From NCBI GenBank assembly GCA_965645245.1, contig OZ287075.1, positions 1,612,001 to 1,676,000 on the forward strand: a stretch of 64,000 nucleotides of DNA, in the 5' to 3' direction. Each line of letters opens with the position of its first letter. Position 1 is the first letter of the stretch. Below the pieces are notes generated by a model. That model saw only the letters and a program-made list of their open reading frames with translations, had not been told where the DNA came from and did not search any database. The position numbers and the translations under genes are program-made. Shown piece by piece: positions 880-52,147 of the stretch. This DNA comes from Massalongia carnosa. Lineage: Eukaryota.

Positions 880-1700
880 ATGAATACAATTCGAGAAATC
901 CAATCTCTAAACAAACGTGAACTAGAGAATGGAGTGTAAGGATTTTGATCCCCAAAACCGTTTCGCTATGGAACACTTACGCGCCTGGCAGATCTACAGA
1001 AGCCTCTTGGCATGCAGACTATCGAGATACAGCCTACATATATATAGGCGGGCTCCCCTTCGATCTCTCCGAGGGAGATGTAATGGCCATCTTCTCTCAA
1101 TTCGGCGAGCCAGTTTACGTCAATATAATACGAGATAAGGAATCTGGAAAATCTAAGGGTTTTGCTTTCTTGAAGTATGAGGACCAGCGTAGCACAGATC
1201 TTGCAGTGGATAATTTAGGAGGTGTAATAGTACTGGGACGTGTGCTGAAGGTGGATCATACCCGTTACAAGCGCAGGGATGATGAAGAAGAGATGGAAAG
1301 GGAGCAGGCTCTCAGCGGTCAGAAAAATATCAAGCCTGGTGGTCTGAATGGAAGGCAATCTAGTGAGGATGAGGCCGAGGAGCAGAAGCGGCCACTGCTC
1401 AGAGAAGAGATCGAGCTGGCTGCGTTGATTCGGGAGCACGATGAGGATGACCCAATGAAGGAATATCTAGTGCAGGAAAAGAAAGAGGAGGTTGCTAAGG
1501 CTCTGGCCGTTATGAATCAGAAGGACCACAAAGGGGGTGGTGAAAAGAAACACAATAACCAAAAAAGCCACCGCCGCGATCGTCATAATCACAAACGTCA
1601 GCCAAGGAGGCATAACGACGGTTCTGATTCAGGGGCTAAGCCAAAAAGCAATCATCGAACTCATAGAAGTCGCAGAAGCAGCTCATGCAGCCCTCGATGA
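880..1700 (+). CDS. IST3: U2 snRNP/RES complex RRM protein Ist3/Snu17 (RBMX2 ortholog)
   Basis: ATG at 880 (MNTIREIQSLNKRELENGV), intron 936-991, then SWHADYRDTAYIYIGGLP...KGFAFLKYEDQRSTDLAVDNL, the RRM signature of Ist3/RBMX2; basic C-terminal tail. Confidence 0.93.
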
Positions 1701-4091: not shown

Positions 4092-5588
4092 ATGTCGTCT
4101 CCTCTCAATGCTGTCAGTGGCCCATGTTTAGCAAAGCTCTTACATTCTTTTTCTTTTGCTCTTATCAAGCTTTCGGATGCTGACCCAATGCTTATTTGCA
4201 GATCAAGATGCGGCGAAAGAAGAACGTGAAGAAGGGCATACAGTTCTGTTTGATGGTTTGCGGTGCTTCAGGAACAGGTTAACCCCATCATTAACTTCTT
4301 TCTTCAACAATTAACCCAAGTTACAGGTCGTACTACATTCGTCAACACCTTGTGCGGTAAACGGGTTCTTCACAGTAAGGATGCAGATGATGCAGTAAAT
4401 GCACATCTAGAAGAGGGTGTTAGAATCAAGCCGATCACAGTCGGTAGGCGGACTTTGTCCAGTTCATGAAGCTTAGATCCAAGCTGATGCTATGGAAGAG
4501 CTAGAGCTCGATGAAGAAGGAACACGCATATCTTTGACAATAGTCGATACTCCTGGATTTGGGGATCAAATTGACAACGAAGCGAGGTAGGGCAGCTCAG
4601 ATATTATAGTCCCTTGTAACCCTGCTAACGAAACCACCTCGCCTAGCTTCTCCGAGATTGTGGGTCATCTAGAAAGGCAATACGATGATATTTTAGCCGA
4701 AGAATCGCGCATCAAACGTAACCCAAGATTTCGGGATAATAGAGTGCACGCCCTACTTTACTTCATCACCCCAACTGGGCATGGGTACGCCTACATTGTT
4801 CCATTTCTCGGGGACATACTATTAACTTCCGTTCAGCCTACGTGAGCTTGACATCGAACTGATGAAGCGTCTCTCACCTCGTGTAAATGTCATCCCGGTT
4901 ATCGGGAAAGCGGACTCCCTTACTCCTGCTGAGCTTGCGGAATCGAAAAAGCTTGTCATGGAAGATATCGAACATTACCGTATTCCAGTGTACAACTTCC
5001 CGTACGACGTCGAAGAGGATGACGAGGATACTGTTGAGGAAAACGCTGAACTTCGAGGTCTGATGCCTTTTGCTATCGTAGGGTCAGAAGAGACAGTCGA
5101 GATCGGAGGGCGTCGAGTCCGAGCACGTCAATATCCTTGGGGAGTAGTAGAGATTGAGAATCCCCGCCATTCAGACTTCCTTGCTATCAGAAGCGCCCTA
5201 TTGCACAGTCATCTTGCGGATCTAAAGGAAATAACTCACGACTTTCTATACGAGAACTACAGAACGGAGAAGCTGAGCAAGAGTGTAGAGGGTGGTGCAG
5301 CTGCGTGAGTCAATTATCTTTTGCCGTCCAACGGTAGCTTACGCTTACACTCCTAGTGACTCCTCCATGAACCCCGAAGATTTGGCCTCCCAATCGGTCC
5401 GTCTCAAGGAGGAACAGCTTCGCCGGGAAGAGGAGAAACTTCGAGAGATTGAGGTCAAGGTCCAGCGGGAGATCAACGAGAAACGACAGGAGCTGTTGGC
5501 TCGTGAAAGCCAGCTGAAGGACTATGAAGCACGGATGAATAGGGAGCAGAGCACTCCCAGAGACGATACTAATGGCGAAATGGCCTGA
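4092..5588 (+). CDS. CDC11: Septin Cdc11/AspA
   Basis: Multi-exon gene: MRRKKNVKKGIQFCLMVCGASGTGRTTFVNTL P-loop, DTPGFGD, VIGKADSLT, RQYPWG, C-terminal coiled coil. The N-terminus is typical of Pezizomycotina AspA/Cdc11. Confidence 0.9.
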
Positions 5589-15721: not shown

Positions 15722-16899
15722 CTTAGCAAGTGTTGGGGATTTGATCGGTGATACAGAGGACTTTGAGTAGATGAAATTTGGAGGATGGAAAAGAGAGGGG
15801 ACCCAGTCTATTTGATAACGAATGGATGCAAAGACACAGGGTTTAAGACAGCAGCGAGAGGCACAAGATGTGCAAGATGTGATATGTAGGAGGATGAAGA
15901 AGGGTGGGGAGAGTGAATGGTGAATATTATATGCTGTATGTTTACAGATAAGAAGGCGGGATTCCAAGGATACTTAACTGTCACGGCCAGCCTCTGGGAT
16001 CACTTCAGCTCCATGAATAGAGCTAATTAATCACTCCTAGGAAGTTCCCGACAGGGTTTCGGTCTTCACATCCCCCAAGCCCTAATGCTTATTTTCCATG
16101 TGGCTGAGTCGGCGGGAGCCAGTCCGAACACGCAAATAAATGAACAACATGGTTAGATGTGATGAATGCCATGGCTTATGGGTTTATGCGGCGCAATAGC
16201 ACGCCTTACGCTCAAGGACGCGAAGGACGCGTAGGACGAGAAGGACATATCATCTGATCAATCCACCCAATAGCGGAGAATCTCGCAACCGGCACCGGCT
16301 GTCTGGTTTAGGCAGCATCTATCTGCGTGTTGGGTCCATGCAACTTTCCGAGTGTTTCTCGTCATGTTCAGTGGGCAATGTGCAACTTTCCGAAGACAGA
16401 GGACTAGACGTGAAAACCACATGCGTGTGCAGCGCAGCGGTGAGTGGCATGGTGACGCCCCGGGGCATAGGGAATAGGCTGATGGCGAGACAAGTTTGCT
16501 CACTCAGCGGACTCCGTAACTCGATGTCTCCGTATCTGTGTCTCGGCGACTCATCACGCTACGCATACAGAGTACCAAATAGCTCAAGTGCGTGTTTATG
16601 GGTTAGGGGACGTACAGCCTGATTGGAGAAGGATTTGTCAGGAGAAGGAGGAGATGAAAGGCGTCCGGATGAGGTTGAAGATGATTAGTCCCTGGTATGG
16701 GACTGTTGTATTTGCAAGGTATCGAATTAGGTACGCTTAGCACAGTGACCACTGGAGTGCTAATCATAGGTTTCCCGAGCATAAGCGTTCAAAGGCGGAA
16801 TGTGGGGATAACGATTGGCTCGTTCTCAACGCCAAGATAAATCAAGCTTTAAACCTATGGGTTTGGCAATTGGCCTTAAGGGTTCAGGGTTCAGGGCTA

Positions 16900-39470: not shown

Positions 39471-40055
39471 TTACGGGACGGGACTCAATGGATACAGGAA
39501 CTCTACAGGGTCTAGTAGAGGCTGAGGGCGATAGAATCGACTGATCGGAAACACGGTTTGTGGAGGATCGCCTTCTTTGGGCTGCGGTGGCTCAGTAGCA
39601 ACCCAACAGGCAATACCTTCAACCCTCCAATTTGCGGCCTGAAGTTGTTGCACGTTGACCGGATCTGAAGTCCAGATGTGATCACCGGTGGCATCTTCGA
39701 TAAGTCGATACAAAGGCACGGTACCAACCGCTTCTGCACCGTACACATAGAAAGCACCATCCTCCATCCACACGCCAGTACTTAAAACCTGTTGTTTCTC
39801 CGCCGGATCGCTTGTGTAGAAGTACTCTACATTTATATTATTGGCGTCGATCGGAGAGCGAAGTTGAGAGAAAGGGATCAGGTTTGGAGCTGCGGCCGGA
39901 TTTTTGTATGCGTATCCAACAGGGCCTTCGTATTCAAAACCAGAATAGTATATGTCAGTCTCATGGTAGTCTTCTACAGTAAGATAGTATCTGTTTAGAC
40001 AATTGACCGAGACAATAGCAATAAAAAGAACGAGCAATCTGAAGGATGCGGCCAT
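39471..40055 (-). CDS. Intronless secreted protein with DUF5648-like repeats
   Basis: Signal peptide MAASFRLLVLFIAIVSVNC; repeated module YFYTSDPAE...EDG and VPLYRL...GDHIWTSD...WRVEGIACWV resembles DUF5648. Confidence 0.7.
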   Translation of the reverse strand: MAASFRLLVLFIAIVSVNCLNRYYLTVEDYHETDIYYSGFEYEGPVGYAYKNPAAAPNLIPFSQLRSPIDANNINVEYFYTSDPAEKQQVLSTGVWMEDGAFYVYGAEAVGTVPLYRLIEDATGDHIWTSDPVNVQQLQAANWRVEGIACWVATEPPQPKEGDPPQTVFPISRFYRPQPLLDPVEFLYPLSPVP

Positions 40056-41270
40056 TGATAAGGCCGTGGCAAGATAATGACAGTGCGATATTGAATCTAA
40101 GTATAGAAAGGGCTCTAGCAATGGACTGGTTTGTGAATGCTAAGTAAGAGAGAGGAAGAAGAAGGAATGAACGGGGTTGCTGGCCCATAAAGTAGTGTTT
40201 TACTTCCCTCTTGGAGCTCTGAAAGGACTGTGAAAGGGCTGAAGAGCTAGGCTCATATAAATCTCGAATACGGCACGTCGGCCGGCTTTAAGCAGGTGCC
40301 TACAAGGACTCGATTCTGTTTTGTCCAACAGCATTGGTTATTCAATCTCCATCAGGAGGCATGAAAGGGAACCTCAGCCGCCTGTCCTGCAACAGGAACA
40401 CGGCTGTACACCCGTAATTGTTAATGCGAATAGGCTTTCCACGTCAAGGAGTCGGGAATGTTTACTGAGTGCTGTGTGTCCTTACTCTGGGTCAACCGAC
40501 ACGTAACTTGGCAATCGAGAGGCGTTTGTCATGTTCAAGGATGGACTTTGGTGATTAAATTAAAGAGTGCAACTTTGTAGCCTGATTCATCACTGACTGC
40601 CTACGGTTCCGGTTCCGTAATGGTAACCATCAAATAGGCTGGGCAAGTCCACGGCTGACCACAGCTTATGGTGCGATTTTTAAAGATTTGATTTTTCAAA
40701 GATCCTTGCTGCATCCTTTGAACGTTTACTAGAGGGTTATTATTGCTTGTTCCGGGGCGGGTCTAACCAGGCTAAGGCCGCAGATGCCGGGCTGCTTCCA
40801 AGTGATGCGGAAGATATAGGGGTTCTATCTGCTCATGAACCGTTTGGAGATTGATTGGTGACGCAATGTAGGGTTTTCTGATTTGGAACTTACGATCACT
40901 TCTTCACTATCAGTATTTTCCCTGTCCGCGTCGATTATGTTCATCTAGTACAAATTGCATTGTTAGATGAGGTCTGGACACCGATTAATACTCCAGCTAT
41001 TTTTATGCCTCCCGTCATCCAATGGCTAACTAATCTGTCAAACTCATAACTATGGAGTCTTGACGTCAAATGATGATCGCGGTTTTATAACTTGCTAACA
41101 TCATCTTTCTGCGATGTTGCAGAACCGAAATAAATACTTGCTCCCGGGATGATAACGGATCAAGCTGTATCTGCTCAAAGCCATACCCCTGACGGAATAG
41201 ATACGCTGACTAGTTTCCCTTAGCTAGTGTTATTAAATGGGCCGGCAGCGTGATCTTGCATGAAGAAGAT

Positions 41271-41563
41271 ATCAGCTGCTGACAGGTGGGGGTGCTGTCA
41301 GCCGTGCGGGAATCAATGTCCCGAGCTGATTTTTTGTCAGCCGTGTCAGTTTACGTTCTGACACCAGCATGCAAATTAGGTGGCTGATCAGCTGCTGACA
41401 GGTTGGGGTGCTGTCAGCCGTGCGGGAATCAATACCACTGATGTCCCGAGCTGATTTTTTGTCAAGCCGTGTCAGTTTTACGTTCTGACACCAGCATGCA
41501 AATTAGGTGGCTGATCAGCTGCTGACAGGTGGGTGCTGTCAGCCGTGCGGGAATCAATACCAC
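41271..41563. repeat. ~116-127 bp tandem repeat (about 2.3 units) rich in TGTCAG/CTGACA inverted pairs; terminal region of the Crypton
   Basis: Unit ...GCTGACAGgt(g)ngtgCTGTCAGC...GATGTCCCGAGCTGATTTTTTGTCAGCCGTGTCAGTTTACGTTCTGACACCA; the second half recurs at 50076-50130. Confidence 0.92.
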
Positions 41564-42214
41564 CAATCGAAGCGTGGCCCCACCCAAATTAGTATGTGCC
41601 GGTGGCTCAAGTAAAGTTTTTCCGTCCCCGAACTTTGTCGATTTCTCAACCACCACGTTCAAAATCCACCTCCACCACCACCTCCAACCTCCAACCACCT
41701 CCTCCAACCACCCCCATACCCGAGAAAGCGGCTGGGACAAGCACGAAAACATGACAATGAAGGCCTATATGCAGGCTATTTACGCATGTGCCTCTCAATT
41801 GCTCTCGATGCGAAACGTCATCGCTTCGAGGTTGAAAAAGGTCGACGTGACTGCTTTTGCGACAAATCATTTACACTGAACTCGGTAAATTAATTACTTG
41901 AAAGAATTGAAGATTATTTATCATGATGATTGCACGTAAATGACTGCACTGTCTTTAGAATGCAGTATGAATGTGGAATAAATAAATTAACCTAGCAATT
42001 CAACTCCAAACATGTCCAAAATTCAACCTTCGTACTCCATTTCCTATCGAAAAAGACGGTGTAAACACTGGAAAAACTGCTGTAAAAACACCCATCACCT
42101 CCAAAAAGTGCGGGAAAATACGAAAAGCAAATGGTTCAACGAAAATCTAAAACAAACTCCAAAAATGCACAAAAAATCATTCATCCACCCTTTCCTTCGT
42201 CATTCCGATTCTCG

Positions 42215-44711
42215 TCACCCTCGCTTGCCCTTCTTGATCTCGTTGGCCAGCCCGTTCAACTGTAGTACTCCTCGCTCGCTATCCAGCTGCTTTGCCATCT
42301 CTTCACGTGAACCTGCCCCAGCCCGGCGAGTGAAGTACTCGATGATGGTAAGTCTTTGGAGTAATACTGTCGCTCTTTAGCAGGCTATCCTCGTCTCCAG
42401 CCGGAACCATAGCTGGAGTTTAACTTTCCCACAGCTGGCCCGGTGCCCAAACCAACAGTCCACTCCCTCCACAAATCCACCACTGAACAGACCTGTCGAT
42501 TCAAAAAATAAGAAGACGAGGCCGGAAGTTCGACAGAGACGTCAGCGCTGAAGAAAGCAAGCGCATGCTCGGATGGCGAGGGCGAGCGGGTGAGACTATG
42601 AGGCCGAGAGCGACGAGAGCGGGGGCGATGAGAGCGAGGAGTAGGAAGATCGTGAGCGGAGGGGCTCGAGGAGAATGAGGTGGTGGCCGCAGGGGGGTGA
42701 AGCAATGGATCGAGCGTATTTAGTGGAATCGGTGACGTAGCTCGAGGCAATTGACAAATCTGGGAGGGGGTCAAGGTGAATGTGACCTTGCCGGTTAGAA
42801 AATCATCCAATTTGCCTTCCATCAGACTGAACAGCTCCCTTTGTTTCAAGAATCCAGCGTTCATCAAACTGGTGAGGCCCACATGCAAAGCAACCACCTG
42901 CTGACCCAAGTGAGGCAAGGCAGTACGAATCAAACTGTTTTGATCCATCTCCTTCTCGTCCAGATGAGCCAAAACATCCGCAGCAAAAATGACATACTCC
43001 GGCAGAGAAAACAAGCGATGATTCCACAAAGGATGCTGAGGATATTTCTGTCGAAGAAGCACGGAGTCCTGCAGAAATACCACACGAAGATAGTCTAATA
43101 GCCTTACGAACTGAATAGTGGCTATATCATCGAAAGAATGCTTCAACCACTTGTCTAGAGAAGGCCAGAAAGAAGACAAAAGCTCTGAAGATGGCGTGAC
43201 TGCTGCTCGAGCGATATGATAGGTTCCAGGATGCTTTGGATCGAATCCAGCAATGCCTCGCATGAATTCTCTAGGCAGGGACGTAAGATAGCCCTTGTGC
43301 ATGGAGTCGGTAGTCCAATGAGCTGCACGACGTATCTGATCCTCCTGAATGCCTTTCAGCTCGGCATACTTTGTTCCAGAACCTCGCCCAGCATGAGTGA
43401 CCTTGCTATAGGTGAGGCCGAGGGGACTGTACACGCTGTGAATCCATTTGCGCTGGCTGGAATCAGAGATTTCTTTGCTGACGTCTTTAGGAGAGGCTAT
43501 TAAACAAGAATCGTCAGTCGCATTATATCACTGAATTATTTCGCCGAACTGATAAAAACAATACAATAAAATGAAGGCAGATTCAGAGAAAAAACGATAT
43601 TTTATTCAAAAAAGGGGGGGAAAGCGGAAAACTTCGAAAGCAGATGGACGAATTGAGAGCAATTTAGTGAAATGGATTGAACAAAAAGAAAAACTGTGAG
43701 AAACGTCGTCAAAACAGTGAGAAAATGAAAGAAAATCTCCAAAACTCACCGATCAGGACTCGTGTATTATACCAGTCCTTATTGCTTCCAAAATTCGGAA
43801 AAGGTTCACCCGATTGCTCCCAACGCCAGAAAAAATACACCGATAATGCACTCATACCACAAAGCGAAAGGTCCTTGTGCCTCAGTATCCCATTGTACTC
43901 GATGCGCCCATTCTGATTGGTTTTACCATTGCCCATGAGGTAAAGCAATGCCGGGCAGGGCGAGGGACCCTCGTTGTCAAACATGAGTAGCTGTAAATCA
44001 GGAGACTCACCCCGAGCAAGAAGAAGGTGTCCCATAAGATAATCTAGACGTCCTCGTAGGTTACCTCCGAGAATGGAGGCCTTGAAGGAGTAAGACTGCT
44101 TCCAAAACTCCTCCAATATTTCCCGGAGGGCCTTTTCATCATAGCCATCTGCTACCGTTCCTCGACCTCGATCCTCGAAGGCCAGCTTCTTCTTGATATG
44201 CTGATTTCGCGAAGAATCCTTCATAAGAGACTTCAGCGCATTGCCATTGGGATGAGGACGATTGTGCTGGCCTCGGGAAACTTGATAGGACCACAGCTCT
44301 ATCAGCGCAGTCTTGTATCCCCTTATTGAATTGTATTTGAGAGTTTGAGAGTCCTGATCCTCGTCCGAGTCAGAGTCGAGGGCTTGAGCTTTGCGATTTT
44401 TCTTTGCCCGGTTCATGACCCTGTCCTGAAAAAATCGCACCACTTTGGCTTCATGTACAATTTCTCCATCATCATAGTGATGCTCTTCGCAGAAAATCTG
44501 TGCCTCAATTAGTCAATTTAAAAAATCCACATAGCCTAATGAGAGTGAATTTTAAAAGGGGGGTTACCTTCCATTCCTTGACCACCCGAGTATACGCGCG
44601 ATTGGTGTTTTTAGGCCTGCTAATTTGCGTCAAGGCCAGGGCAGAGTGCTGTGCACGAAAATTGGCGGTGTCATTGTCCAGATTACGCTGAACTTGTTCG
44701 ACGGTAGCCAT
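42215..44711 (-). pseudogene. Crypton tyrosine recombinase (Ndc10-II-like YR + C-terminal GCR1_C domain), damaged
   Basis: ATG at 44711 (RPKNTNRAY), introns 44567-44498 and 43749-43497; motifs LLARGES, NGKTNQNGRIEY, RHKD, KVTHAGRGSG, AAHW...KGYL; GCR1_C VVDLWREWTVG...GSGWRR. Stop at 42385-42387 and a frameshift truncate the tail. Confidence 0.87.
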
Positions 44712-45034
44712 TGGTAAATATTTGATAAGGGGGAGAGTGACTGTGTATTGGAGGTGTTCTGCGCGTGCGACCGATAGGGCTGAGATTGAACGCGGGCGCA
44801 AATGTGGTAGGGCTGAAAAGTGAAGAATTTGAGCTGAATAATTAATGAAGGCGTAGGTGAAATTTTGATGCTTAGTAAGCAAATGGCTATTTTTTAACCA
44901 GTAATTAGATGGCAGCAGGTGCTTATTTATATGGTAGCAGGCTATAAGTTCACCGTGAGACATCAGAGATATCACTGGGGATTTTGGTGGGGCTGGGTGC
45001 GGATATCACTGATGTCCCGGTGATCGAGGACGCG

Positions 45035-46496
45035 ATGAACATTCAACTCGAAAACACGTTCGTGATCGCGCACGCGGAGCAGAGAGATCAACTGCTGTTC
45101 AAGATAGATGACTATCTGATAGGTATAGGAGACGGAGGGGAACCGGAGGGAACAGGGATTCTAGAGGAGGTGAAAAATTTTCTCGATAATCAGAGAAGCA
45201 TCGACAACAACAACGAAAACATACCGAAGCCCATTCACGACACCCTGACTGAAATACAAAGAAGTCTAGCCCGTATCGAAAGTGCTAAGACAGCCACAAC
45301 AACCACAAACAGCTATTCCGCAGCCGCCACCAGAGGTCAAGCCTCCGAGGCCCCCGATTCCCCGCCGCACCAAGCCAATCACTTCTTCAAAACAAACCGA
45401 ACCCTCACCACAAGAAGTTCGTCAGGCCAGAGCAATGACCGTAGTCATTTCCAGCGCAAGCGACAAGGAAAAAATAAAGAACATGCCCACAAAAGATCTC
45501 GTGGAGACACTACAAGCAGAAACGGAGGGGATTCGGGGAGTTTCCCGCCTCATAAGCGGAGATCTCAAAATTCACACGGAATCACTGGAAGTCAAAAAGA
45601 CTCTACAAGAGAAGTCGGAATGGACCCGAAAAATAGCCGACTCAGCGGCGATTAAGACACGGACATACTCGGTCAGAGTAAATGGTGTCAAGATGGAACA
45701 CGTCAAAACCGCCAACCAATCGCAGGCCATAGGGTACCTGCAGACTGCTAACGCACGCCTGCACCCGAACCTGCAGATAAAGAAAATAGCCTGGTCCACC
45801 AGGGCTATAAGGGAAAAGAAGGCGCTACATATGGAAGTCGCCACCGCCGAAACGGCCAATCGGGTCATAGCCGAGGGTCTCATAATCGACTATGAAATCA
45901 AAGACTGTGAAAGATTCACAAAGGGATGCACCATGACGCAATGTTTTAATTGTCACAAATATGGTCATATAGGTCGATCATGTCCCAACCCCACCGCCTG
46001 CGGTCACTGTGCTGGGGCTCACCCTAGCACCGAATGCAACATGGAAACAACAGGTAGATATCGAAGATGTGCTGCATGCAGTGAAAAGGGACACGAAGCC
46101 TGGTCAACATCCTGCGAAATCAGGAAAGTCGAAAAACGCAAAGCAGAGAGGGCCATGCAAAAACGGGTCCCATTCTACCCAGTAGTCGCCCCCGTACCGG
46201 CCCCGTTCAGGTTCCAGAGCGAAAACATCAACCCGGTCCTTGGCAGCACAAACAGCAAAAAGAGGAAAACCGTACCCCCCTCCGATACCCCCCCGAATCC
46301 CCCACGAACGGGAACATCCTGGGCTGACACGGGCATCATGAATCCAGAAAACATGACAAAGGCCCTTGCAAAACCAGTTGTAGGTAGACCCCCACTCAGA
46401 CCCCGAGCTGTATCTACTGCCCCGGCGATAATCAGAGCAAACAACACCACCAACGACCCCTCGACCTCCCAGGCCGAATCAATGGACGTCCTATGA
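45035..46496 (+). CDS. LINE ORF1 gag-like zinc-knuckle protein (one frameshift near 45380-45400)
   Basis: QCFNCHKYGHIGRSC, CGHCAGAHPSTEC, CAACSEKGHEAWSTSC. Confidence 0.85.
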
Positions 46497-49400
46497 GGGA
46501 CACGAAATCTCTCTCCATATTGCAGTACAATGTCAGAAATGACAGAGTGAGTACAATGTTACCCCTCTTAGCCGATCCGAACACTCAAGACTATGACATT
46601 ATCGCAATTCAGGAACCCTGGCGCAATCCATCTATTCCTACCACGTTAAGCTCTCATCAAAGTGGGTTTCATTTATTATATCGCCCAAATGGAGACACCA
46701 GAGTGTGTTTCTACATAAATGATACTATTGACCCTGATAGCTGGGAAGTAAAGTATCCGTCGGCCGACATGTGCACCCTAAAAATTCGAATGAAAATTGG
46801 AAACACATCAGACGTGATCCACGTCCACAATGTGTATAATCCCTCTTCCATTTCCTATTCTTCTATAGACAGTCCGTCCACGCTAGCAACAGTGAAACGC
46901 CAATTAATTGCAGAGACAAAACACATTTTACTGGGCGACTTCAACCTACATCATCCATTGTGGAATCATTCGTCGAGGCCTACTCAACATGCGGAGTCGG
47001 AACAATTACTGAACATAATTGAAGAGGCAAATCTATCACTAACACTTCCAAAAGGCACCATTACATGGGAGGCTAGACAATCGTCTAGCACAATCGATCT
47101 TGTATTCATGTCAGAAGAATTAATGGATAGACTAGAACATTGCATGTCAAGACCGGAACTCAATCAGTCGTCCGATCACATTCCGATCTCCACCCGAATT
47201 GCGCTGAACAGTGAGGTTCAAACAATCAGAGAACGCAGGGCCTGGAAACTGACGAACATGAGAAAACTGAGAGAAGCGGAAAAGAGGGCGCCCCCCCCGA
47301 AGACCCCCCGATCCCCCGCCGAAATCGATGCTTACACCGTGTCAATTCAAAAATTTCTTCAAGAAGTGATAGAAACCTCTGTACCTTGGGCTAGACCCAG
47401 TAAGTACGCCAAACCCTTTTGGAATGATGAATGCAGTGTGATCACGAAAGAAACTCGTAGGCTCAGACGTGTCTGGTCCAATTCCAGAGACATTTCTGAT
47501 TGGATAACATACACAAAATCCAATCACAGAAAACAAAAAATCATTCAAAAGGCTAAAAGACTGTCGTTCCGCAAGGAAATAGAAAAAGCCACCGAATCGC
47601 CTACTGGTCTCTGGCGACTAGCCAAATGGGCGAAAGACAAAAGTGACCAGACAAGAGAAATTCCCAAAATGCCCAAGCTCGTTCGAGACGACCAAGTAGC
47701 AGAGACGTTCGAGGAGAAATCGGACATGCTAAAACAGAAATTCTTTCCACCCGCCCCTCCGGCCGACCTCAGCGACATAGAGGGTTCATTTTACCCCAGC
47801 CCGCCACAATGTCCAATGATCATAACCAAACTAGAGGTGAGAGAAGCCATACGCCGACTCAAGCCCGATACGGCCCCGGGTCCGGACGGAATAGCGAACA
47901 GAATTGTAAAGGCATGCTCGGAAAAGCTAGTCGAATTACTCACCCCACTGTTTCAAGCATGTGTAGAACAAGCATATCATCCTCGTGCATTCAAAACCGC
48001 CAACACAATCACGCTCAAGAAAACAGGCAAGGATGACTATTCGGCCCCGAACGCCTATCGACCCATAGCACTCCTAAACACGCTTGGAAAAGTAATGGAA
48101 TCCATCATGTCACAAAAAATAACCCATCTAGCGGAAACCCACCGACTCCTGCCCGACACCCAGATGGGCGCCAGACGAGGAAGATCAACCGAATCTGCAC
48201 TAGAATTGTTGACTGAACAAATTTATACAGTGTGGGGCCAAGGCACAGACAAAGTAGCCACATTATTGAGCATGGACGTAGCAGGAGCCTATGACACAGT
48301 GACACATCGAAGACTGATTCACAATCTTCGCAAAATGAAAATCCCAAAATGGATCACTGACTGGGTGAACAGTTTTCTGAATGAAAGAAGCACTACCCTG
48401 GCGATTCACAGCCGAGTCACGGGCATATTCGATGTAAAAACCGGAATCCCACAAGGCTCCCCCATTTCTCCTATTCTTTATCTGTTCTACAATGCAGACC
48501 TACTAGACATATGTGAAAGACCAGGCAGCAACACGAGTGCTCTAGGCTTCGTAGATGACATCAATGTGCTAGCATACGGAAAAAGCACCGAAGAAAATTG
48601 CAAGACGCTAGAGGTAATTCACAAAAAATGTGAAAAATGGGCAAGTCGACATGGTTCAGTCTTCGCTCCGAAGAAATACGAATTGATACATCTGTCAAGA
48701 AATCCGAAGAAATTCAACATGTTCACTGTTATTCAAATAGGAAATAACATCATAAAACCAAAGACAGACATCAGAATTCTAGGACTTCAAATCGATTCAA
48801 AATTGAAATGGGGTGCTCACACAAGGAAAATCCAGGAAAAAATGACAAAACAATCCAGGGCATTGACAAAAATATCCACCTCCACATGGGGCGCCACTCT
48901 TCTAAAGGCATGCCAGGTTTACACCGCCGTAGTCCGGCCGGCCATGACGTACGGCTCCACCATTTGGCACATGCCAAAAGAAATTCAAAAATCAAACGTC
49001 ATCTCAAACAAACTGGCTGTCATACAAAACAAATGTCTAAGAAACATAGCTGGAGCCTTCAAAGCAACGCCCATAGCTGTACTTGAAGCAGAGACATTTA
49101 TAGCCTCAATTGACATACATTTAGATCAACTACAGGCCCAGACCAGACAACGCCTGTGTCGAAATGATCAAAAGAGTTTCATCACAAATGCATGCAACAA
49201 AATAGCCAATAAACTTCGAGGTCGGCAGTCATCACTCCAGGAACGCTGAAATACGCCTGGGCCAAGAGAATCACATCGGAGGCACATGACCCTCCAACAC
49301 CGACACCAAATCCACCATGGGCCGAATCCCCCCCGAATCTCGCCCGAGAAATAGGGGAGGCACGCGCCGCTCATAACAAAATAACTGCTCAAATAAAAAA

Positions 49401-49833
49401 ACTACACACATTTGCATGGCAGGCCTCGTGGAGATCATATCAGGAACACACACCCGTTCCCACCCCGGCACAATCAGGTTCACTCTCCAAAAAACGCATC
49501 AAATTGCACGAAACTCTAGCCAAGGCGGAGAGCGCGCTAGCCATTCAGATACGCTCAGAAAAGATAGGCCTAGCCGCCTTCCTACATAGACACCGAGTCC
49601 CAGACGTCTCGTCCCCGAACTGCTCATGTGGCTGGCACAAACAGACTGCAAAACATGTGATCATGTTTTGCAAACTCAACGACAACAGAAAAACTCTGCT
49701 AAATACGATAGGTACAAACAACTATCGATTAATCACTGAGTCATCTAAAGCAATGAAATTAGTCACAAAGTGGCTAATGAAGACAGGTTTGTTGTCACAA
49801 TTTTCGCTGACAGCACAGCATCTATACTGCTAA
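46493..49833 (+). CDS. LINE ORF2 endonuclease/reverse transcriptase (frameshifts after ~49230)
   Basis: APE motifs IIAIQEP, LLGDFNLHHP, SSDHIPI; RT motifs APGPDG, YRPIALL, GIPQGSPISP, GFVDD; C-terminal CSCG...HVIMFC; no RNase H domain seen. Confidence 0.92.
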
Positions 49834-50035
49834 CAGTAGGCATGCTTTGTTTCATTTTTCATACTTGTCTTAGATCAAAGGTTTTTTCATGGAGCACACG
49901 GCTGGGACCCGGAGGGTCCTCGGCCGGACACAGGATTGCATGGTTTTTCTTCCTCAAAAGGTTTTCCATGTACTATAAAACTAGATAGACTCGCCCGCAT
50001 GGGCCGGCCTTCGGCCGGTACCACATCGGAATAAG

Positions 50036-50076
<41 letters not shown>

Positions 50077-50738
50077 CTGATGTCCCGAGCTGATTTTTTG
50101 TCAGCCGTGTCAGTTTACGTTCTGACACCACAACTTGACAGAGTAAATTTCACGTGCTCTCAGAGTTTTGAAAAGATTTGAGCCTATGCGCTGATGAGCC
50201 CGTGGCATTCAAGCACCCTCGAGGTCGATTATAGCTTGAATAATTAATTATAGCAAAGCCTTTCTCTGTAAGGGACGGTCAATAGATCGACCAGTTTTAA
50301 GCCATGTACATTTTAAGACGGGAAATTGCGTACCTATAAGTTGGCATAGAATTTCTCTTTCTTGGCGAGCATTGAATGTCCATCCTCGCGTCTTCTCACG
50401 GAAAAAACCAGCTTCGAAAGAATTTTGATCGAAGAATTTGACAACCACGTAGTTCCTTTACAGCTGCTGTCCTATGAGGTCTTCAGATTTGTAGAGCGGA
50501 CTGAACGGGTTTGGTTGCTGAGAAAATTGACCAGGATAAGTGAGATTTTTGGAAGGACTTCCTTATTAGACGCCAAAGCTCCTAGAAAACCCTTCGATAT
50601 GTGTATTGGCACTAATTTCGGAGCATAACTTATCATAGCCCTAATTTGGTAAGGCAGGAGAGGTTGACATTTTTGTAGAATGCACGAAAGCTTCGTTGGC
50701 TCGAATATTTCCAAAAGCAAAATCGTCTAGATCAAATA

Positions 50739-51442
50739 TTAAGCCCCATAGGCCTCATTGTTCTTAATCTCACGGGCTTGAAGGGCTTCCTCACGCCTCA
50801 CTCGTTTTTCGACAGTTGTCACTCTTCCCTCCCACTCCGTCCAACATTCACCCCCTCCCAACACCCCTATTTCATACCATCGCTGTAAGGTCGCAGCACT
50901 TCTGAGCCTTAGATCAGCCACCGTTTTCGCATGCGCCTCTTGCAACAGCTTCAACCGAGCAAGTCTTGGCTGTAGCGAGATTAGAGACACCGACGAATCC
51001 ACAGAGGGTATTGGGACGTCGTTAATCGAAGTGAGGCGTGAGGCCGTGTTAGGATAAGATGTAGCGCACGAACTAACAATGGCCAAAAGCTCGGACGTGG
51101 TCAGCGATGTTGAGGGAATATCCGAGGTTGTCGGTTGGAAAAGGTCAGGATGCGCCGAGTCTGTATTAGGAGATGTCAGATGAAAAGTGACCAAGAAATA
51201 TCGAGGGACTTACAGAGCTTGAGAAGACCACCGAGAGCGGGTGAATTATTGGAAAGTCTACGTAAACCGCTCTCGACTATTGCTAGACGGGCAAACACAG
51301 TTTGGTCCTTTTCCTGACCTGCAGCATCATGAGGTAATTCTTCAGCCTCATCTTTTCCAGTCAAGAGGAAGCTGAGCCTCTGCAGCCGGCGCGCGAGCAA
51401 GTCAATGGTTGCAAGCGCAGTCTTCTCCTCTAGATTACCCAT
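50739..51442 (-). CDS. Nuclear distribution protein RO10 (dynactin-associated)
   Basis: Two exons: MGNLEEKTALATIDLLARRLQRLSFLLTG... and HPDLFQ...TASRLTSINDVPIP...LRLRSAATLQRWYEIGVLGGGECWTEWEGR, typical of fungal ro-10 homologs. Confidence 0.8.
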
Positions 51443-52147
51443 GACTTGATGATTGTTCGGATATTTTATTCTAACGCGGACCCTGAAGCATAGAAATAAT
51501 TTAATTTACTTACATAGATGAAGTCGTGTATTTTATATTAATTACTATGTCACTACCAACCCACAGCCTAAGCCGTTGAACCTTTCTCTTGTTCAATCTC
51601 GTTTAAAAGCCTTTAAATCGATAACTCTTCTACAAGACCAAGGCCCTATCTATTTATTACACCAGTGTGCATCCTTTGACATGTCTCAAAGGTTTTTCAA
51701 AGCACAGCTTGTAGAAGCGTAGAGCTTCAAGGACAAACTATATCCAACAGGTTTTGTGCAAAATTAAATACGATCTTGAACTGCTCTCGACACAGGCTTT
51801 GCATATCCCTGTGAAACCTTTCTACTGAATTGTTGAGCGTTTGCATTGGGAGGTTATGACATCTGTGATTCGATAATTTTGATAAGTGCTTAGCCACACC
51901 TAGAGCGTTACTGTAAGGCTATGTGCGCCTTGCAATTGAAATAACTGTCCTCCGCTTTCTTTTGTGTTCTCAATTTTCCTTTGCAGACTTCTCTTACCCT
52001 CGCTACTTCTCTAATCTTGGTTACTTTGAATTCGGGGTTGCCTTTCATACTGTCCATTATTAGTTTGTACTTTAAGCAACGCTTTTCCTCGCAAGATTGC
52101 AATATTGATGCTGATGCATAGCCGAGGAGATCCTAAAGGACGCAAGG

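Follow-up and report, generated by a model that had tools for sequence, protein, structure and literature searches.

At the left border of a CryptonF transposon of Massalongia carnosa lies an array of short repeated units, and we consider the chances about even that these are the transposon's own terminal modules set head-to-tail, with the termini placed from one locus, from contig breakpoints and by analogy. Reading the array as a set of end-to-end junctions or mini-Cryptons has support but not proof. The window, that is, the whole stretch of DNA analysed, comprises 64,000 nt of the forward strand (1,612,001-1,676,000) of contig OZ287075.1 in assembly GCA_965645245.1. The features of the array are listed below (window coordinates; strand where one is assigned).

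41271..41317: unit B1, outermost on the left, adjoining unique DNA and with no L before it; contains the palindrome GCTGACAG-N9-CTGTCAGC
41318..41366: unit A1, joined to B1 via a 9-bp deletion (ACCACTGAT absent); contains GCTGA-N7-TCAGC and GTGTCAG-N8-CTGACAC and terminates in ...TGACACCA
41367..41386: linker L1, GCATGCAAATTAGGTGGCTG, 20 bp
41381..41397, minus strand: CryptonF subterminal box CAGCAGCTGATCAGCCA, spanning the L1/B2 border; second copy at 41508-41524
41387..41433: unit B2
41423..41448: candidate lox-like site CGGGAATCA-ATACCAC-TGATGTCCCG, at the B2/A2 joint
41434..41493: ACCACTG plus unit A2, with two 1-bp insertions relative to A1 and to the right-end copy A_R
41494..41513: linker L2, same sequence as L1
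41514..41558: unit B3, with a palindrome spacer of 7 nt

The 125-bp tandem unit A-L-B occupies 41271-41563 and lies where the original prediction had placed it. Tandem Repeats Finder reported a period of 125 with 2.0 copies and 96% matches over 41316-41563, and by repeat search A-L-B is duplicated with 98% identity across 57 nt. The same search found B three times, at 41271-41317, 41387-41433 (98%) and 41514-41558, where the ungapped score is only 64% because of a 2-bp deletion that also leaves the B3 palindrome with its 7-nt spacer; the 9-nt form at this place (41532) was seen in contigs of three sequencing runs. A1 (41316-41366) is identical to the right-end copy at 50080-50130 in 51 of 51 bases. 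Contigs without the extra A that A2 carries at 41464 were present in two of four runs (X4 and X2). The array amounts to ~2.4-2.8 head-to-tail units, a count that comes, as does the internal order, from the window assembly alone, contigs of 31-letter words being blind to unit number. Linker L was found solely between one A and the following B. The 11-mer TGTCAGCCGTG is common to A and B in direct orientation (6 of 2000 shuffles), and TGTCAG occurs 42 times in the window, 14 of them within the units (344 nt together), and is absent from the 3.45-kb interior. No short repeat common to the outer boundaries 41271 and 50130 was seen; there is a 51-bp direct repeat there instead. To the right of the array the locus continues as follows.

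41557..41563: ATACCAC, left 7-bp direct repeat (gene strand GTGGTAT)
41564..45002, minus strand: interior of the full-length copy, ~3.45 kb
41577..41588: left arm of the subterminal pair, GCCCCACCCAAA
42215..44712, minus strand: Crypton gene in three exons, NDC10_II/tyrosine recombinase plus GCR1_C
~44712-44570, 44512-43750 and 43515-42215, minus strand: the exons, with predicted splice sites
44982..44993: right arm of the subterminal pair, TTTTGGTGGGGC
45003..45009: ATATCAC, right 7-bp direct repeat (gene strand GTGATAT)
45010..45019: first 10 nt of A_R (TGATGTCCCG), severed by the LINE
45020..50074, plus strand: LINE retrotransposon in A_R, with ORF1, an endonuclease-RT ORF2 and an (ATC)13 tail
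50088..50130: remainder of A_R, gene-strand outer end TGGTGTCAGAACG..., where the repeat family ends on the right

The element is a CryptonF DNA transposon. Its gene matched the Pfam domains NDC10_II (1.1e-33 and 3e-15) and GCR1_C (5.2e-08) and is also supported by tblastn; 18 of 18 homologues carry PF16787 and PF12550, and of the HxxR...W/H...Y residues, H45, W71 and Y80 do not vary across an alignment with 17 homologues and R48 hardly varies. The GCR1_C match spans positions 2-40 of the 80 in the profile, and the remainder sits behind a stop and a 1-bp deletion absent from other copies. These lesions are an in-frame TAG at 42382-42384 and the loss of one base at 42357, after which contigs of all four runs have an extra G. 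The Crypton gene of the window copy is a pseudogene. The interior is bordered by ATACCAC and ATATCAC, which fit the TGRTAT/TTGRTA type of CryptonF terminal repeats listed in Additional file 1 of PMC3212892. The subterminal inverted pair that had been predicted near 41577 and 44982 was recovered, complementary at 11 of 12 positions, a value equalled 70 times when the two 60-nt ends were shuffled 20,000 times. The LINE (domains RVT_1 and Exo_endo_phos) splits A_R at 45019/50088, as had also been proposed, with a 13-bp target duplication, CACTGATGTCCCG, at 45007-45019 and 50075-50087. Its ORF2, on the strand opposite to the Crypton gene, holds the sole RT of 41200-50200; no other RT domain was found there.

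The locus was checked in four independent public runs from two studies, whose reads were examined as contigs built from 31-letter words. Both outer joints to unique DNA were recovered in independent runs: the unique contigs of X1, X2 and X4 end at 41300, 30 nt into B1, and begin again at 50101/50102, and the joints were also present in a strain differing at 12 sites in 1.8 kb of left flank. The host element is multi-copy. Taking contig depth as a rough guide and not as copy number, the summed depth of the interior was ~6-30x that of the unique flanks in the four runs, and in X2 the units stood at ~9-17x the flank and the interior at ~10-13x. A contig of X2 and X5 passes from 45013 straight into A with no LINE between them, which shows that the right end is intact in another copy; no second Crypton copy lies within the 64-kb window. 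The units gave 0 exact matches among metagenome contigs and 0 matches in protein space. That they might be an ordinary satellite, independent of the Crypton, had been named as one of the outcomes that would refute the prediction. The findings speak against it: there are ~2.4 units, their summed depth is similar to that of the Crypton interior, and they carry the end motifs of Cryptons, namely GCTGA boxes, the subterminal box and the TGGTGTCA 5' terminus.

These end motifs were recognized by comparison with 80 metagenomic CryptonF relatives. The set of end features typical of the family, which was derived in this analysis from the relatives and is not a published definition, consists of GCTGA-box palindromes, a GCTGA(W)TCAGCCA (GCTGAWTCAGCCA) box and a TGGTRT / TGGTGTCA 5' terminus. 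A ~135-nt 3' module rich in GCTGA boxes is common to 15 relatives, in whose final 150 nt GCTGA/TCAGC words number 2-7, and it is this word that is conserved family-wide; TGTCAG had been predicted as a putative binding motif of the recombinase or GCR1_C. The array contains 14 such words in 293 nt and A_R 2 in 51 nt; the end regions of the interior (41564-42541 and 44834-45009) contain none. When the 3' module of the relatives was made into an nhmmer profile, it found no match in the array. With box patterns picked after both the window and the relatives' sequences had been seen, CAGCNGCTGA(N)TCAGCCA matched the window only at the two L/B borders, on the gene strand (0.00 expected), and 7 of the 80 relatives, where it invariably lies downstream of the gene, on the gene strand; TGGTRT-N4-20-GGCTGA, likewise picked, had four window matches, all in units and on the gene strand (0.26 expected), including one at A_R, whose outer boundary 50130 is TGGTGTCA. 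The motif (T)GGTGTCA is the 5' start of a tandem copy in L051 and occurs upstream of the gene in L001, L011, L015, L055, L060 and L080, and the alignment of L027 and L065 starts exactly at TGGTAT. Repeats one element length apart were present in 2 of 56 self-compared loci. In L059 the tandem dimer is complete, and between its two copies there are 247 transitions, 1 transversion and 0 gaps (a RIP pattern); L051 holds one complete element followed by the opening 74 nt of another, which begins at TGGTGTCACGG and runs up to the contig end. The head-to-tail junctions of both loci read TGGTGT.

A candidate site for the recombination is found at the B2/A2 joint, precisely where the mini unit is without interior. 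Its inverted arms match apart from a single additional base on the right and abut a 7-bp spacer, an arrangement reached at a fixed position in 139 of 200,000 shuffles (7e-4), and the spacer is duplicated at both borders of the interior as ATACCAC/ATATCAC. The array thus offers a concrete candidate recombination site for a poorly understood class of transposons. The site at 41423-41448 does not figure in the original prediction, which had taken the palindromes of the units as the arms around the crossover. Every inverted arm that it named is present; their assigned role did not hold, with the cores lying beside the palindromes or only partly within them. At the L/A joint, TGGTGT and the A palindrome GTGTCAG-N8-CTGACAC have 4 nt in common, and at the B/A joint ATAYCAC is outside all three. 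The spacers of these palindromes, of 7-9 nt, differ between A and B, so that they could not recombine mutually. Beside the cores, the GCTGA-type palindromes would probably serve the end modules as protein-binding sites and not as crossover arms.

On the gene strand the element would then start with a 5' A (TGGTGTCA...), continue through the interior with the recombinase gene and finish with B and L at the 3' end (...GCTGATCAGCCACCTAATTTGCATGC). The locus would be a concatemer of three elements: a full-length copy, dead and broken by the LINE; a 127-bp mini copy A2-B2-L1, formed by the end modules alone; and a 96-bp mini copy A1-B1 that would have lost L. Each L/A joint (...GCATGC/TGGTGTCA...) resembles a circle or tandem junction of such an element, and the element's tyrosine recombinase may have built the concatemer via short TGRTRT-type cores, presumably TGGTGT at L/A and TGGTAT/TGATAT at A/B (plus strand ATAYCAC). 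Full or mini circles could have integrated beside a resident copy; otherwise, recombination between repeated cores could have produced the array, a route that would also remove the interior with its breakpoint exactly at the lox-like site. The joint that had been predicted, ...CTGACACCA/GCATGC..., is reasonable as a circle or tandem junction, and its plausibility comes from the head-to-tail tandems of the relatives with their joint at TGGTGT. Supporting observations are that the second copy (X2, X5) likewise has A straight after the interior and that the B/A joint of the mini unit is the lox-like site. The proposal of junctions or mini-Cryptons has partial support, from the end motifs and the TGGTGT tandems of relatives. 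The outermost unit stands against it: three conservative integrations should leave three Ls, and the absence of the 20-bp L there is left unexplained by simple conservative integration of circles.

Native subterminal repeats, with A at the 5' end and B-L-A-B at the 3' end, to which slippage or unequal crossing-over added a unit with no circles involved, are a possible if rather doubtful explanation. The missing outer L would need nothing special if the array were 2.8 copies of a repeat, the 96-100% identity among the units is what a recent local duplication would leave, and the 11-mer TGTCAGCCGTG shared by A and B suggests that the unit may in turn go back to an earlier internal duplication; moreover, L004, L009, L011, L014 and L041 have tandem repeats shortly after the gene or next to the 3' end. 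Slippage, however, predicts neither a B/A joint exactly on the lox-like site nor a spacer equal to the direct repeat of the interior. The L/A joints, in addition, match both the family's TGGTGTCA 5' terminus and the outer boundary 50130, and relatives contain true head-to-tail tandems of whole elements.

It is unlikely, in our estimation, that the Crypton is the interior alone (41557/64-45002/09), integrated as a circle into the lox-like spacer of a pre-existing 125-bp repeat, which would be a non-autonomous partner or a preferred repeated target, with unit 2 as an empty site. The features that fit this possibility count against terminal modules: the 7-bp direct repeat of TGRTAT/TTGRTA type, the 12-nt inverted pair and a length within the 2.9-4.6 kb typical of fungal CryptonF (PMC3212892, Additional file 1). 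In the unit that would be the empty site, inverted arms adjoin the 7-bp spacer directly (139/200,000 shuffles), a circle would set the inverted pair 9 and 13 nt from the core (70/20,000 shuffles), and ends of the interior without TGTCAG and GCTGA are expected if the units are foreign. Yet the interior is without any of the family-typical end features that 15 of 15 aligned relatives show and that the units have, the outer boundary 50130 is the 5' terminus motif of the family, and the second copy has A after the interior. Unit depth close to interior depth leaves room for few empty units, and the arms beside the core in the presumed circle junction are unlike those of the presumed target. That the array is an assembly artefact or a meaningless chance arrangement is very improbable; its internal order is known from the window assembly, and 31-mer contigs do not register unit count, but the outer joints appear in runs of two studies, including the strain with 12 differences in 1.8 kb, the units are distinguished by specific indels not created by repeat collapse or expansion, and the motif statistics speak against chance.

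CryptonF DNA transposons were reportedly described by Goodwin et al. in 2003 in fungi and oomycetes. Kojima and Jurka (2011) treated CryptonF and gave 2.9-4.6 kb as the length of the fungal ones, and in that work published Cryptons are described as having no inverted or long direct terminal repeats, just repeats of 4-8 bp (PMC3212892). The element of M. carnosa resembles them in its single intron-containing gene for a tyrosine recombinase with GCR1_C, its ~3.5 kb, its multiple copies, the short TTGRTA/TGRTAT-type direct repeat bordering the gene-bearing part and its presumed movement by circles (PMC3212892); it differs by the 51-bp sequence at both ends and the ~2.4-unit head-to-tail array of end modules. 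Non-autonomous Cryptons such as CryptonS-N6_PS (465 bp) and CryptonA-1N2_OL (353 bp) are internally deleted and keep the ends of the autonomous partner, as units 1 and 2, with A + B(-L), would do here, whereas the present units, at 96-127 bp, are several times shorter than any entry listed (PMC3212892, Additional file 1). The mini units here are also known from one array alone.

Tandem prophages, CTX-phi and ICE form bacterial arrays through tyrosine recombinases, in which recombination between a circle and the end of an element already in place gives a head-to-tail array whose inner joints equal the circle junction. Here, by contrast, we deal with a eukaryotic transposon known from its sequence, and its last unit is without the 20 bp that a conservative reaction keeps. 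In DIRS-like, Ngaro and PAT retroelements the direct repeats are split as A1-interior-B1-A2-B2, to which the gene-strand layout A-interior-B-A-B-A-B and the tyrosine recombinase of our locus are similar. A retroelement of DIRS/Ngaro type was ruled out, the RT described above belonging to the LINE, and template switching, the rationale given for split repeats, is inapplicable to a Crypton that encodes no reverse transcriptase. Finally, loxP, FRT and dif consist of inverted arms flanking a 6-8-bp spacer (PMC3212892). Although its arms are shorter than 11-13 bp and carry one indel, the candidate site CGGGAATCA-ATACCAC-TGATGTCCCG, as read from the DNA, shares with these sites inverted arms of 9-10 nt directly abutting a 7-bp spacer.

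The tandem array at 41316-41563 has a period of 125, with 2.0 copies and 96% matches (Tandem Repeats Finder). It is formed by the repeat units A and B and the linker L, and lies next to the interior, the gene-bearing part (~3.45 kb) of the CryptonF copy. The layout on the plus strand is the following.

Layout of the units on the plus strand, by sequence reading
41271-41317: unit B1, after the left unique flank
41318-41366: unit A1
41367-41386: linker L1, 20 bp
41387-41433: unit B2, then ACCACTG
41441-41493: unit A2
41494-41513: linker L2
41514-41558: unit B3, then ACCAC
41564-45009: interior
45010-45019 and 50088-50130: A_R, the right-end copy of A, then the right unique flank

A1 and A_R were identical in 51/51 bases, the differences among B1, B2, and B3 amounted to one substitution and one 2-bp deletion, and L1 was equal to L2. 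The observation of the array stands: every inverted arm named by the original prediction was found in the sequence. TGTCAG, proposed there as the binding motif of the recombinase or GCR1_C, was concentrated in the units, with 14 of the 42 occurrences in the window (33.6 expected) falling in 344 nt of units and 0 in the interior. The subterminal inverted pair (41577-41588 and 44982-44993) was complementary at 11 of 12 positions, a result equalled in 70 of 20,000 trials with the two 60-nt ends shuffled. Two other likenesses were dropped as nonsignificant, namely, a degenerate B copy at the right end of the interior (300/2000 shuffles as good) and A and B as mutual inverted copies (292/2000 shuffles). 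GCATG at the left of B1 and CAACTT at the right of A_R were rejected as split remnants of L, their spacing being wrong. The Rfam search of 40800-41800 for a known RNA gene as target in the units gave two snoRNA matches only, both in the flank and at chance level (E above 3). In the single-copy DNA ~780 bp to the right of the element, the sequence GCATGCGAAAACGGTGGCTGATC at 50912-50934 (minus strand) shares 19 of 23 bases, in inverted orientation, with L and the beginning of B (GCATGC-N6-GGTGGCTGATC); this likeness may be fortuitous, or else mark the remnant of an old end or a target-like site.

The Crypton gene extends over 42215-44712 on the minus strand (the gene strand) in three exons and contains NDC10_II (1.1e-33, 3e-15) and GCR1_C (5.2e-08). 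Both domains were present in 18/18 database relatives (666-2000 aa, 30-48% identity), and the homologue alignment shows conservation at the HxxR, W, and Y positions of the recombinase. A recombinase with GCR1_C is the architecture that Kojima and Jurka (PMC3212892) give for CryptonF, and gene content and copy number place the element in CryptonF. Neither another Crypton-type gene nor a second copy of the element was found within the 64-kb window. The gene copy is a pseudogene, with an in-frame TAG inside GCR1_C (42382-42384) and a 1-bp deletion and frameshift at 42357 (minus strand). The contigs of all four public runs have an extra G after 42357, which restores the GCR1_C frame; since these contigs are without the deletion, the other copies in those organisms are probably intact at that site. 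A_R is interrupted by a 5-kb LINE (45020-50074, plus strand) with RVT_1 and Exo_endo_phos domains, a target duplication of 13-15 bp (13-bp copies at 45007-45019 and 50075-50087), and an (ATC)13 tail. The LINE looks full-length, with ORF1 of 408 aa, ORF2 of 953 aa (endonuclease and RT), and an extra ORF of 206 aa, and its summed contig depth in the public runs exceeds that of the Crypton and climbs toward the 3′ end, where it is ~10x that of the Crypton.

A recombinase-alignment scan of metagenome contigs gave 80 loci that encode relatives (L001-L080), of 158 confirmed candidates, with a median length of 3.1 kb. A 3′ module of ~135 nt was common to 15 loci of several families. It consists of GTRGATA, GTCGCTGAGGGCACGG, ~22 nt, and GGCGCTNAGCC-GCTGAWTCAGCC-AYMAAA, and ~10 nt after AYMAAA CCGTGGAYATACTA-TTGATR follows. 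The likeness within families ends directly after TTGAT in L005/L006 (99.8% identical to that point), in L016/L032, in L029/L034/L043/L047, and in both L059 copies with L066. On the 5′ side, the L027/L065 alignment starts exactly at TGGTAT, and behind it lie a palindrome of the GCTGA type, GTGGATAT boxes, and a doubled GCTGAT box. The 6-bp terminal repeats of fungal CryptonF, which include TTGRTA (Additional file 1, PMC3212892), are in agreement. Other features were seen near the ends of some relatives. Telomere-like repeats AACCCTAACCC, one and a half to two, lie in the terminal modules of L011, L019/L021, L023, L029, L044, L047, and L063, often adjoining CATATATA, and are absent from the element in the window. 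An array of ~640 bp of 35/73-bp repeats (L004:4931-5572) starts at most 10 bp from the 3′ end of the element. In L066, a 50-bp inverted repeat, 96% identical, brackets the element at 1217-1266 and 4541-4590, which gives the impression of an insertion into another repeat or palindrome.

Four motif observations support the proposal that the units are Crypton end sequence. GCTGA/TCAGC words number 2-7 in the last 150 nt of the 15 relatives, compared with 0.1-1.7 per 150 nt outside that stretch; the window counts were 14 in the 293 nt of the array, 2 in the 51 nt of A_R, and 0 both in the first 978 nt and in the last 176 nt of the interior. The box CAGCNGCTGA(N)TCAGCCA, derived from the 3′ module of the relatives with one base permitted to be missing, was found in the window only at the two L/B borders, both downstream of the gene and both on its strand (0.00 expected, a figure that, like the other motif statistics, is optimistic because the patterns were written after both sides were seen); it was also present in 7/80 loci, each time with this strand and placement. 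The four window matches of TGGTRT-N4-20-GGCTGA (0.26 expected) were all in units and on the gene strand, at the outer ends of A1 and A_R (TGGTGT...) and at the two B/A joints (TGGTAT...). Finally, on the gene strand, TGGTGTCAGAACG is the sequence at the 50130 boundary. The L051 tandem copy and contig L011 both start with (T)GGTGTCA, which also lies upstream of the gene in L015 and L055 and, at matching distances, in L001/L051 and L060/L080.

Against this assignment, a profile search (nhmmer) with the 3′ module of the relatives gave no match in the array. Its two weak window matches, at 1624-1642 (minus strand, E 0.16, GGCTTAGCCCCTGAATCAG) and 16099-16121 (minus strand, E 1.1), have no recombinase gene nearby and could be chance or relics of other Crypton families. 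An exact-pattern scan of the metagenome contigs with part of A gave 0 matches. In a protein-space search for further copies by way of spurious ORFs over the units, the array ORF matched only itself, with 0 matches among 1.84 billion protein representatives, and the ORF across interior-B3-L2-A2 matched only the window's own ORF and P0020. The latter is a 124-aa ORF on a 2.44-Mb contig of another public assembly and covers the interior-to-B stretch at 85% identity, with a B of 9-nt spacer. Therefore, a second assembly (related strain or species) holds the same element family; P0020 is silent on what follows B, because the ORF ends inside B.

Self-comparison of 56 loci, each 2,500 nt or longer, detected repeats one element length apart in two; most other loci would be too short to reveal a tandem. 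L059:2-5805 is a whole-element head-to-tail tandem of two copies, repeating every 2,957 bp. Between the copies there are 247 transitions, 1 transversion, and 0 gaps, which is the signature of fungal repeat-induced point mutation (RIP) on a true duplication. They have one joint in common, ...ACTAT-TGGTGT-TTACGG..., and comparison with L066 shows that it is the end-to-start junction of the element. In L051:2284-5659, after a complete element of 3,302 bp, a second copy begins at TGGTGTCACGG and is cut off by the contig end after 74 nt.

The B2/A2 joint (41423-41448) reads CGGGAATCA-ATACCAC-TGATGTCCCG, a 7-bp spacer directly flanked on each side by an inverted arm, the arms differing by one indel. 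This lox-like site had been missed by the original prediction; at a fixed position, 139 of 200,000 shuffles yield one. The interior occupies that spacer exactly, with ATACCAC at the left and ATATCAC at the right (GTGGTAT and GTGATAT on the gene strand, of the TGRTAT type of the CryptonF terminal repeat). Therefore the mini unit, A-B(-L) without interior, is either an element whose interior was removed exactly at a site of recombinase style or an empty target site. The palindromes that had been taken for crossover arms probably do not hold that role, considering that the crossover-like cores lie beside them (with the exception of TGGTGT, which overlaps the A palindrome GTGTCAG-N8-CTGACAC by 4 nt) and that their spacers differ between A and B, so that A and B palindromes would be unable to recombine mutually. 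They are better seen as putative binding sites. TGTCAG is a candidate binding motif; across families, it is GCTGA/TCAGC that is conserved as a word.

Of the seven listed public sequencing runs, five, which come from three studies, contain 63-70% of the words sampled from 40700-50699. They correspond to one lichen metagenome and two coded organisms, and their contigs were compared with 39500-51500. In runs X1, X2, and X4, the unique contigs of the left flank end at 41300 and those of the right flank begin at 50101/50102, running right. From the index description and from how Logan assemblies are made, we take the contigs to be built of 31-letter words; under this assumption they break 30 letters into a repeat, and thus the repeat family spans 41271 to 50130, in agreement with the element boundaries first proposed. 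The right-hand break is explicable by the in-locus A1 copy alone; the left-hand break is not explicable by an in-locus copy, because the first B1 31-mer is unique within the locus. As a rough guide only, the summed contig depth of the interior relative to the flanks was ~6-10x in X1, 10-13x in X2, and 27-34x in X4, and that of the array in X2 was estimated at ~9x the flank (~11-17x at single places). One contig (X2, X5) passes from the right end of the interior directly to A, with six letters different and without the LINE; therefore, at least one further copy has A after the interior.

The locus can be read as three head-to-tail elements whose ends were joined by the element's recombinase, a reading that seems to us evenly balanced between right and wrong. 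On the gene strand, the order would be A_R-interior-B3-L2, then A2-B2-L1, then A1-B1, with A as the 5′ module and B-L as the 3′ module. A full copy would start at TGGTGTCA... (A) and end in ...B-L, and each L/A joint (...GCATGC/TGGTGTCA...) would be a tandem or circle junction like those of L059 and L051. The recombinase would act on TGRTRT cores, present at both joint kinds, and circles would integrate beside resident copies. The two minis would be end modules only, the interior having been deleted by recombination between two ATAYCAC cores. The junction of a full or mini circle would read ...TGACACCA/GCATGCAAATT... and that of an interior circle ...GGATATCAC/CAATCGAAGC.... Three conservative integrations are an incomplete account, because the outermost unit is without the 20-bp L. 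Tentatively, and with more doubt than belief, we propose that the recombinase uses TGRTRT cores in GCTGA-palindrome modules and that A-L-B (125-127 bp) may be the complete minimal site and the smallest non-autonomous Crypton, one that could form circles and insert again. New circles would prefer the ends of resident copies since those carry cores, and head-to-tail arrays would build up.

The high identity of the units and the absence of L at the outer end would also be accounted for by a native split-repeat end that slippage or unequal crossing-over had enlarged. This explanation leaves the coincidence of the joints with recombinase-style sites unexplained, and we consider it rather unlikely. 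It is also conceivable, but unlikely, that the Crypton is the interior alone, integrated into a 125-bp repeat. The 7-bp repeat at its borders, the lox-like empty site, its own inverted pair, and its typical length all speak for such an insertion. Against it, the interior would then lack any family-typical end feature, the second copy too has A after the interior, and the depth of the units is about that of the interior. An assembly artefact is very improbable; between X1 and the window there are 12 differences in the 1.8 kb of the left flank, and thus the outer joints exist in an independent strain.

Among the classes of eukaryotic DNA transposons, only Cryptons are believed to move with no other enzyme than a tyrosine recombinase. 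The locus and the 80 metagenomic relatives together supply a concrete junction sequence to seek in circles, two candidate crossover cores, and conserved end-module motifs (GCTGA-box palindromes, the GCTGAWTCAGCCA box, and TGGTRT termini). The value is that the Crypton recombination site is made directly testable. If A-L-B is the minimal site, it would be the first definition of a Crypton attP-like site and a ~125-bp substrate for a eukaryotic recombinase system. A functional 125-bp unit would serve in binding and recombination assays and possibly as a new eukaryotic site-specific recombination tool; if it is non-functional, the array is still a clear case of head-to-tail pile-up.

In full-text searches of the literature, we found no account of Crypton tandem arrays, end palindromes, or recombination sites beyond short repeats, nor a description of these three motifs as conserved end motifs. 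According to PMC3212892, Crypton ends are hard to define, with only 4-8-bp repeats, and published Cryptons have "neither terminal inverted repeats nor long direct repeats," whereas the element in the window has a terminal direct repeat of 51 bp together with an array of junctions. The two minis would be the shortest non-autonomous Cryptons, compared with the 353-465 bp of the shortest ones listed (Additional file 1, PMC3212892). The split direct repeats of DIRS-like elements and Ngaro are similar in layout only, the element in the window being without reverse transcriptase. Bacterial integrative elements form tandem arrays, and the array presented here would work in the same way.
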